Shown in pieces: positions 62,550 to 63,714 of a stretch of DNA of 64,000 nt (its first letter is position 1; each line of letters starts with the position of its first letter). The stretch is from NCBI GenBank assembly GCA_977017645.1, contig OZ360220.1, forward strand, positions 30,504,001 through 30,568,000, in the 5' to 3' direction. The position numbers and the translations under genes were made by a program. The notes beneath the pieces were generated by a model. That model was not told the DNA's origin. It saw only the letters and a program-made list of their open reading frames with translations, and did no database searches. The stretch is from Torpedo marmorata. Taxonomy: Eukaryota.

Positions 62550-62775
62550 CAGTAAAATCCCTGTTATCTGGAATTCAAGCAACCGGTAGCCTCAAGCAAC
62601 CGGCAAAAAAAAAAAATCGAGGAAAATAAATGGGTAAAAAAATACGGAAGTTTAAAATCGGCGCGCCTCGCCATTAGTTCTCCATTTGTGTAATGCGCAG
62701 TCTCAAGCATCCAGGAAATTCACTTATCCGGCTTTTACCAATCCCTGTAGGTGCCAGATACTGGGGATTGTACTG
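62550..62775. mobile_element. Tigger/pogo-like MITE
   Basis: TIRs cagtaaaatccctgttatctgg/ccagatactggggattgtactg; TG/TA flanks. Confidence 0.78.
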
Positions 62776-63081
62776 TATAATTTTGAATCCCCTATTAAAA
62801 GGTTGGCACATAAGACGTGGGATTGTTTTCACTGTTGAAAAGAAAACTTTTGAGTTAAGATTTAGAGTTTTGATACTGTGATTAGACTTTCCAACCTATG
62901 GAAATTTGATAATTTAAAATTGTTACAAAAATCTCTTGTACGTGGCAAACACGAGAAATAGAAACAAGAGTATGCCATTCACCCCCTCGTGTCTCCTGCA
63001 CATTTCATTATGATCATGGCTGATCTTTTACCTCAGTGTCACTTTATTGCAATAAGCCCATACCACCTGATTCCTTTAATA

Positions 63082-63643
63082 CAGTGAAACCCCGATTTAA
63101 CGCAAATTCAGATATAACGCGACCGCTTCCGGATCCGGGGCTTGTGGCAGGCCAGCGAGTGGTGGAGTGCGGCGCCGCGGAACTCCGGCAGCCAGTTGTC
63201 TCACAGGTCAGCCGGAGACGCGGACACCGGCGGCCGCTGTCGAAGCAGAGAGCCGGGCTAGTCCGCAGCAGCCAGTGCAGGCGACAGTAGCAGCACAGCA
63301 GGTTGTTGTCCAGGCGCAGCACGGCCAGGCTGCGCACCGGCAGCAGTGCGCTCTCTTCCAGCGTGGCCAGCTCCCTCAGCTTGTACAGCTGCCGAAGGTT
63401 CTGCTCCTGCAGGGAGCTGATGCCCAGGTAATGCAGCCGGAGTGTGGCCAGGTTGTGTAGGTAGAACAGGGATTCGGCTGAAATGGAGGTGAGGCAGGTT
63501 TAACAAGTTGCCGAAAGCACCAGGTTCCACGCTGCTGATTATGATCTTGCTGTATATGTGTAACCCCGATTTAGCGCAACACCGCTTTTTTCGCGATGCC
63601 ATTTTATGGACCCAAACGATCGCGTTATAACGGGGTTTCACTG
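63082..63643. mobile_element. Tc1/mariner (pogo/Tigger-like) MITE carrying captured gene fragments (Pack-TIR)
   Basis: TIRs cagtgaaaccccgatttaacgc/gcgttataacggggtttcactg. TA TSD at 63080-63081 and 63644-63645. The flanks rejoin as a CR1 3' remnant. Confidence 0.88.
63123..63545 (-). pseudogene. LINGO3: Captured, internally deleted LINGO-family (LINGO3-like) LRR/LRRCT fragments
   Basis: Translations: IISSVEPGAFGNLLNL; LTSISAESLFYLHNLATLRLHYLGISSLQEQNLRQLYKLREL; LATLEESALLPVRSLAVLRLDNNLLCCYCRLHWLL; PPVSASPADL*DNWLPEFRGAALHHSLACHKPRIRKR. These are collinear with recalled LINGO LRRs and the LRRCT. Paralog assignment is tentative. Confidence 0.72.
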
Positions 63644-63714
63644 TATCTAAAAATCAATAGATCTTCCCTTGGATATATCCTCCCTAGCTTCAAATTTTTC
63701 TAATTCAATTAAAT

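Follow-up and report, generated by a model that had tools for sequence, protein, structure and literature searches.

Near the right edge of the 64,000-nt stretch of the Torpedo marmorata genome analysed here (the window), a small island of coding-like DNA lies between the inverted ends of what looks like a DNA transposon. A sequence-only reading of the window had taken it for a miniature inverted-repeat element (MITE) of the pogo/Tigger type that holds fragments of a LINGO gene. The locus raises the question of where this DNA came from, how it got between the transposon ends, and whether it has travelled with them. We consider it very probable (roughly 0.85) that the element belongs to a family of about 460 copies with an interior pieced together from the LINGO3 exon, and that this interior was likely copied in once during the repair of an excision gap, the product then likely being spread in trans by the family's transposase.

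Structure of the element and its LINGO3 pieces

The element is 562 bp long (63082-63643) and has a TA on either side. Its outer inverted arms (63079-63103 and 63622-63646; 25 nt, 92% complementary) comprise the terminal inverted repeats (TIRs) plus the TA, and a third TIR-like repeat is located within the right end. The GC content reaches 0.62-0.68 across 63100-63499, against 0.23-0.40 in the surroundings. These features agree with the earlier description of imperfect TIRs with a TA target-site duplication (TSD), enclosing a GC-rich, coding-like interior in AT-rich DNA. Sequence comparison confirms the element as a non-autonomous pogo (Tigger-like) DNA transposon whose cargo consists of three pieces from the coding exon of the host's LINGO3 gene (Table 1).

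Table 1. Features of the LINGO3-carrying element and its insertion site (positions within the window)
Feature	Position	Strand	Basis
TA target-site duplication, left	63080..63081	+	Sequence; flanks rejoin here into a repeat that is intact elsewhere
Left (transposase 5') end: 22-bp TIR plus subterminal sequence	63082..63122	+	
LINGO3 piece 3: last LRR plus LRR C-cap, donor aa ~344-429	63119..63371	-	92.5% to donor, 254 nt; PDB 2id5 308-351
LINGO3 piece 2: LRRs, donor aa ~200-243	63367..63494	-	96.1% to donor, 128 nt; PDB 2id5 164-204
LINGO3 piece 1: one LRR, donor aa ~100-120	63494..63552	-	Donor alignment
9-nt filler between right end and cargo	63553..63561	-	Absent from donor and, at that place, from the transposase-bearing element
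Right (transposase 3') end: inner TIR-like subterminal repeat plus 22-bp TIR	63562..63643	+	Same end in transposase-bearing copies
TA target-site duplication, right	63644..63645	+	Sequence
Older CR1-type LINE tail fragment interrupted by the element	62954..63681	-	Approximate limits; alignment to L044

Rejoined at one TA, the flanks form a repeat that is uninterrupted in two other loci (L044 and L006; 69-70% identity over the junction). In four loci (L129, L136, L037 and L042) this repeat lies directly downstream of a reverse-transcriptase coding sequence that we take to be CR1-like, consistent with the proposed insertion inside a CR1 tail. Elsewhere the window presumably consists mostly of frames from LINEs and other retroelements. 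At 62550-62775 lies another small element of a different kind, with 22-nt inverted arms (82% complementary), a CAGT start and a TA on the right. It is likely another pogo-type MITE, inserted beside an L1-like endonuclease frame.

The predicted LINGO origin was borne out at the protein level and narrowed at the DNA level. Searched against PDB sequences, the two longer minus-strand pieces matched human LINGO1 chain 2id5_A best (residues 308-351, E 5.6e-4; residues 164-204, E 2.6e-5). The donor was sought with the LINGO C-terminal part that is missing from the cargo, and five LINGO-like frames were found in the 6.2-Gb genome. One of them, the LINGO3 ORF at G000:C54:33605158-33607014, is 99% identical to the family majority and 88-97% identical to single copies. 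Among the best 120 listed relatives of its protein, every name showing a number is LINGO3, many names ending before the number. The other LINGO paralogues were rejected as donor, the best reaching 69% over piece 3. The fifth, divergent frame (L065, G000:C2729:62645-65839) sits on a small contig and is 38% identical to shark LINGO3; the other four lie on large contigs. The coding part of the donor is a single exon, and no element end was found within ~10 kb on either side of it (~23 kb around).

Against the donor, the three pieces of the window copy show 88% (69 nt), 96% (128 nt) and 93% (254 nt) identity. The column majority of 18 long copies agrees with the donor at 312/314, 127/128 and 18/18 positions and exactly over the 59-nt piece 1. 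Three joined minus-strand segments had been proposed, and three pieces there are, with other limits: piece 1 spans 63494-63552 rather than 63495-63545, and piece 3 spans 63119-63371. The final LRR and LRRCT do match LINGO, but their supposed KPRIR ending lies in another frame because of a 1-bp deletion in piece 3, which is typical of the short subfamily.

Compared with the donor, 242 bp (~81 codons) are skipped between pieces 1 and 2, which join out of frame with 1 shared nt, and 309 bp (103 codons) between pieces 2 and 3, which join in frame with 5 shared nt. The estimated loss of about 80 and 100 codons was thus close. Beyond what the sequence-only reading held, we found a longer, ancestral form of the element, which has 92 bp more and a fourth LINGO3 piece, and we found that the same ends also carry other cargos. 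The pieces of the long form correspond to donor aa ~100-120, 200-243, 344-449 and 460-466; piece 3, which here reaches donor aa 449, is 98-99% identical to the donor in the long-form majority. The third donor gap measures 37 bp with 3 shared nt, and the join to the left end has 2 shared nt. The filler is 11 nt in part of the long subfamily. At the deletion joint of the short form, the last 4 nt of the left end are common to piece 3, which is the microhomology of the short-subfamily deletion. The captured piece 3 has a GC content of 0.76 and a CpG observed/expected ratio (o/e) of 0.99, against 0.59-0.61 and 0.62-0.63 in the skipped parts, and the GMIP cargo described below is likewise GC-rich.

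Copies, transposase-bearing partner and sequence decay

A genome search with the cargo gave at least 500 candidates, 40 of which were scored at 90-93% besides the window copy. A 24-nt pattern across junction 2, allowing up to 2 mismatches, matched 460 times (229+231; control 0, 0+0) and recovered 37/37 copies found by other routes. The pattern across the short-form joint matched 86 times; the short form of the window copy is a minority subfamily of ~86 copies. The 71 fetched loci with the junction reduced to 63 copies distinct by flanks, most repeats being one locus fetched twice. After dropping 4 copies without one TIR, 59 with both TIRs were scored. TA is present on both sides in 51 of them and all left flanks differ; the 8 copies without a perfect TA pair putatively reflect later mutation. 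Junction 1 occurs in 59/59, junction 2 in 58/59, junction 3 in 35/59 and the short joint in 19/59, and an 11-bp tandem duplication at junction 2 is found in 28/64 copies, in both forms. With the same junctions in nearly all copies, the family has a single founder structure; it also has a single donor.

The matches, distinct flanks and paired TAs bear out the proposal that the element transposed together with its cargo. Cargo copies are many, rather than one amid abundant empty MITEs, and no plain two-ends-only element is dominant in either of the 30-locus end samples described below. Duplication does occur in this genome: one GMIP-cargo insertion with identical flanks makes up 15/30 fetched loci, and L013 and L014 of the LINGO family share flanks. 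However, the LINGO copies lie on many contigs with distinct flank pairs, so segmental duplication is refuted for them, and contigs from independent public runs span the junctions. The chance that the copies arose by segmental duplication or by an assembly artefact is negligible.

These public runs, under three organism labels and of guessed kinds, were aligned to one long copy, no piece spanning the whole element. Presumed-DNA contigs of organism C bridge the end-cargo joint, junction 1 and junction 2 at ~87% identity, whereas those of organism A are mostly at 90-99%. The greater divergence of organism C suggests another species; if it is one, the capture would be older than that split.

Typically 530-720 bp long, the copies are short, non-coding and numerous, with TIRs and TSDs, as MITEs are, though atypically GC-rich and gene-derived. 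Both termini of one TIR element surround non-TE host sequence; the donor locus is identifiable and has no flanking element ends; the copies have their own TSDs, and they are neither retrocopies (no poly(A)) nor segmental duplicates. The window element is a multicopy Pack-TIR, a known kind of element. Tan et al. operationally required a cargo of 80-120% of the donor span, compared with ~510 nt of a 1098-nt span here (long form); the requirement serves as a filter for detection and carries no biological meaning.

Of 30 loci sharing the exact right end, one proved to be a 1897-bp element with transposase remains. Searching with the interior of this partner gave 145 candidates, 40 of them scored at 88-95% identity. 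Twenty copies were fetched and 18 read by script; they are mostly 1.84-1.92 kb long, with a divergence of 5.1%, close to that of the cargo copies (4.1%). The family's transposase is broken except for a near-full-length pogo frame of 543 aa (L171:933-2564, minus strand), which shows CENP-B_N, HTH_Tnp_Tc5 and DDE_1 domains, all above the Pfam cut-off, and a DD34D triad with 34 residues between the last two aspartates. No intact transposase was found among the 18 copies read, the best stopping ~14 codons before the C-terminus of L066.

With a TA TSD, short TIRs, these domains and a DDxD triad, the family agrees with the pogo superfamily, for which PMC7386202 gives a TA TSD and DD29-56D. The frame also lies within the Tigger size range, a single ORF of 300-685 aa (PMC9219625). 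By its ends, domains and size the family is placed in pogo and is Tigger-like, and the ends are of the type that the sequence-only reading had named. Because the ends are shared and the divergence of partner and cargo copies is similar, mobilisation of the cargo copies in trans by the partner transposase is likely.

In samples that lean toward young copies (BLAST best hits; exact matches listed first), the mean divergence from the majority is 4.1%, with 6.0% for the window copy, and amounts to 11-12% at CpG sites against 2.2% at other sites. Non-CpG changes at codon positions 1, 2 and 3 number 154/6613, 125/6515 and 167/6586 (2.3, 1.9 and 2.5%), second positions changing slightly less than first and third. 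We infer from this pattern silenced, unselected (neutral, methylated) DNA. A coding function was rejected: junction 1 shifts the frame, there is no signal peptide or start piece, and the codon positions are nearly even. They are likely to be passengers in decay and not functional genes.

Other cargos and the origin of the captured DNA

The left end occurs 1870 times at ≤2 mismatches, with the short LINGO form not counted, and the exact 27-nt right end 287 times. We sorted the first 30 loci of each end; these two samples consist of exact matches from the first contigs, have a few loci in common and are biased toward young forms. The right-end loci comprised 14 C-type, 9 LINGO, 2 GMIP, 2 D-type, 1 E-type and 2 transposase-derived elements. 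Of the left-end loci, 15 were E-type, 7 of these having a long foldback arm, and the others were 6 D, 3 C, 2 LINGO, 2 GMIP and 2 transposase-derived elements. Besides LINGO3, the cargos thus include a GMIP exon and at least three others, one with a LINGO3 remnant. In neither sample did an element combine coding pieces from two different genes.

The C-type cargo is an AT-rich stretch, mostly with a 21-bp GC minisatellite. LINGO3 junction 3 is kept beside the left end in 5/14 C-type elements, so the LINGO3 element served as the chassis for a later cargo swap, that is, serial replacement. In C- and D-types (L031-L060), a complete TIR plus TA inside the right end closes it off as an 88-bp mini-element, after which foreign DNA follows. 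Only two flanks were seen after it, and no free-standing 88-bp mini-element was present among 30 loci. It looks as if repair had jumped to the end of another copy and read on into its flank. No genomic source of the non-coding cargos was found; an ordinary copy with a later insertion at C76:37.09 Mb was rejected as the source of the 550-bp cargo.

Near-perfect foldbacks of ~100-115 bp per arm lie within the first 300 nt of L140, L146 and L150. Six of the 30 left-end loci have a complete foldback; as RNA, the predicted energies are -187 to -208 kcal/mol, values that carry no shuffle control. By this folding model, the subfamily is a possible source of hairpin RNA.

The GMIP cargo (L099, L039) consists of the start of the gene's last coding exon plus 34 nt of intron, including the splice acceptor. 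Its donor lies at G000:C77:2690012-2690568, with 17 differences in 451 from the majority and no element ends in the 10 kb around it, so that neither this locus nor the LINGO3 donor shows where capture took place. The best named match of the GMIP cargo is from Narcine bancroftii (74%). The cargo search gave 103 candidates. A cluster at G000:C45:22.5-29.4 Mb (L111-L128), where a GMIP-cargo insertion recurs with identical flanks every ~0.2-0.7 Mb, was rejected as donor, being the single insertion duplicated together with its flanks. The cluster forms a large tandem array of segmentally duplicated DNA, and one more copy lies on C44. If located within introns, GMIP-cargo copies might putatively be spliced as additional exons.

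Whatever the cargo, both ends are cut off at about the same points, close to the termini, as expected from abortive gap repair after excision. We propose that an excised element would leave a gap, and that repair would copy the two ends (~70 bp left, ~80 bp right) and build the interior by switching templates along LINGO3, with jumps of 242, 309 and 37 bp at short words in common. For the transposase the ends alone would suffice, so the cargo would ride along, and the family transposase acting in trans would spread the product. Repeated repair would make the short form and exchange one cargo for another, one derived type retaining a LINGO3 stub. We expect the copies to behave as selfish passengers that yield no protein. 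With random breakpoints in the LINGO3 exon, shared words at the internal joints have a chance of 0.010 for ≥5 nt, 0.072 for ≥3 nt and 0.48 for ≥1 nt. Against this proposal, junction 1 has a single shared nt, no more than chance would give, and the scheme does not account for the 9-11 nt filler.

Searching the genome with the skipped 242- and 309-bp parts returned the donor and two paralogues only (3/3 candidates each), and no copy retaining either part; both gaps are therefore older than the copy burst. The order of events before the burst bears on a second scenario, in which ~1.1 kb of LINGO3 was taken whole and three stretches were lost by microhomology end-joining in successive masters. One-step discontinuous copying is indistinguishable from such contiguous capture with pre-burst deletions. 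In favour of trimming, the family still deletes at short shared words after capture, as the short form lost 92 bp at 4 nt, and shorter elements may move better. However, no copy with either large skipped part survives, whereas the step from long to short left both forms numerous. We regard trimming after contiguous capture as a reasonable but less probable alternative.

A LINGO3 transcript fragment could also have been retroposed into an empty element that then moved. The genome is full of LINEs, and retroposition into Helitrons is described for bats (PMC4224331). On the other hand, the cargo has no poly(A) and no TSD of its own, its pieces derive from the interior of a single coding exon, and the joints are not GT-AG and show shared words. 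The GMIP cargo keeps its stretch of intron with the acceptor, so it was taken as DNA. Retroposition is thus very improbable.

Possible consequences for LINGO3 and relation to known systems

The copies may affect the gene they came from. Transcription from the left end or from host introns could yield antisense or small RNA that damps LINGO3 and is kept by selection. In favour of such a trans-regulator, the LINGO3 cargo lies antisense to the transposase direction, copies are still ~93-96% identical to the donor, and in maize donor genes map more siRNA and methylation (10.1101/777037). On the other hand, the copies decay at CpG like silenced neutral DNA, the captured donor parts differ from the majority at ~3 of 519 nt and show no loss of CpG (o/e 0.90 against 0.79 for the rest of the donor), and the GMIP cargo has the opposite orientation, in sense. 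We find selected regulation quite unlikely. Of two presumed-RNA runs, one, its type guessed and with DNA possibly present, has contigs bridging the end-cargo joint and junction 3, which we do not take as evidence of expression.

A wider speculation, hardly less doubtful, is that of a vertebrate Pack-MULE equivalent: a pogo family in rays that swaps cargo and whose ~460 antisense LINGO3 copies feed piRNA or siRNA targeting or methylating the single LINGO3 gene. If true, transposon silencing would be in conflict with a nerve gene. The family offers a test bed for whether the silencing of a gene-carrying transposon spills onto the donor gene. With donors, junctions and transposase partner all identified, it is also a natural data set on how abortive gap repair builds new elements. 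In practical terms, masking with repeat libraries built on this genome would hide parts of LINGO3 and GMIP, and the short reads of both genes will mis-map.

In animals, gene-fragment capture by cut-and-paste transposons is regarded as rare and, where it occurs, as almost always single-copy. The survey of Tan et al. (2021, PMC8277862) reports 370 Pack-TIRs in 100 animal genomes; four of them are multicopy, the example given has three copies, and elephant shark has 0. The LINGO3 family shares with these elements, among which TcMariner/Tigger cases occur, the TIR ends around host DNA, an identifiable donor, distinct TSDs and breakpoint microhomology. It differs in its ~460 copies, in the replacement of >90% of the transposon, in a cargo of 3-4 discontinuous pieces and in several cargos per pair of ends. 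Single-copy animal Pack-TIRs keep most of the transposon, with small internal gaps (median 4.6%), whereas the breakpoints of the LINGO3 family lie near the termini (PMC8277862). Part of this contrast is one of method, as the filters of Tan et al. (80-120% length to donor, unique best hit) would likely miss the family, with its deleted, high-copy cargo. LINGO and GMIP are absent from the supplements of PMC8277862 searched. Our literature search returned no published description of the LINGO3-cargo family, for which a Repbase or Dfam consensus entry may exist.

The available portions of the pogo/Tigger accounts (PMC7386202, PMC9219625) describe the same TA TSD, short TIR, single ORF of 300-685 aa and CENP-B_N/HTH/DDD architecture, also in cartilaginous fish, but, unlike the LINGO3 family, no gene-carrying derivatives. 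In plants, Pack-MULE and Pack-CACTA (Pack-TYPE) elements likewise are non-autonomous ends that shuffle GC-rich gene fragments from several donors; the LINGO3 element belongs to another superfamily (pogo, TA TSD) and a vertebrate host. The family is thus a plant-like outcome in a vertebrate, with hundreds of coding-fragment copies, at least two donor genes and visible serial cargo replacement. High-copy gene capture in vertebrates is already published for bat Helitrons: these vertebrate DNA elements also captured gene fragments, sometimes serially, and raised their copy numbers to between tens and thousands (Thomas et al. 2014, PMC4224331). Those elements are rolling-circle transposons without TIRs or TSDs, whereas the LINGO3 element is a cut-and-paste transposon with TIRs and a TA duplication.
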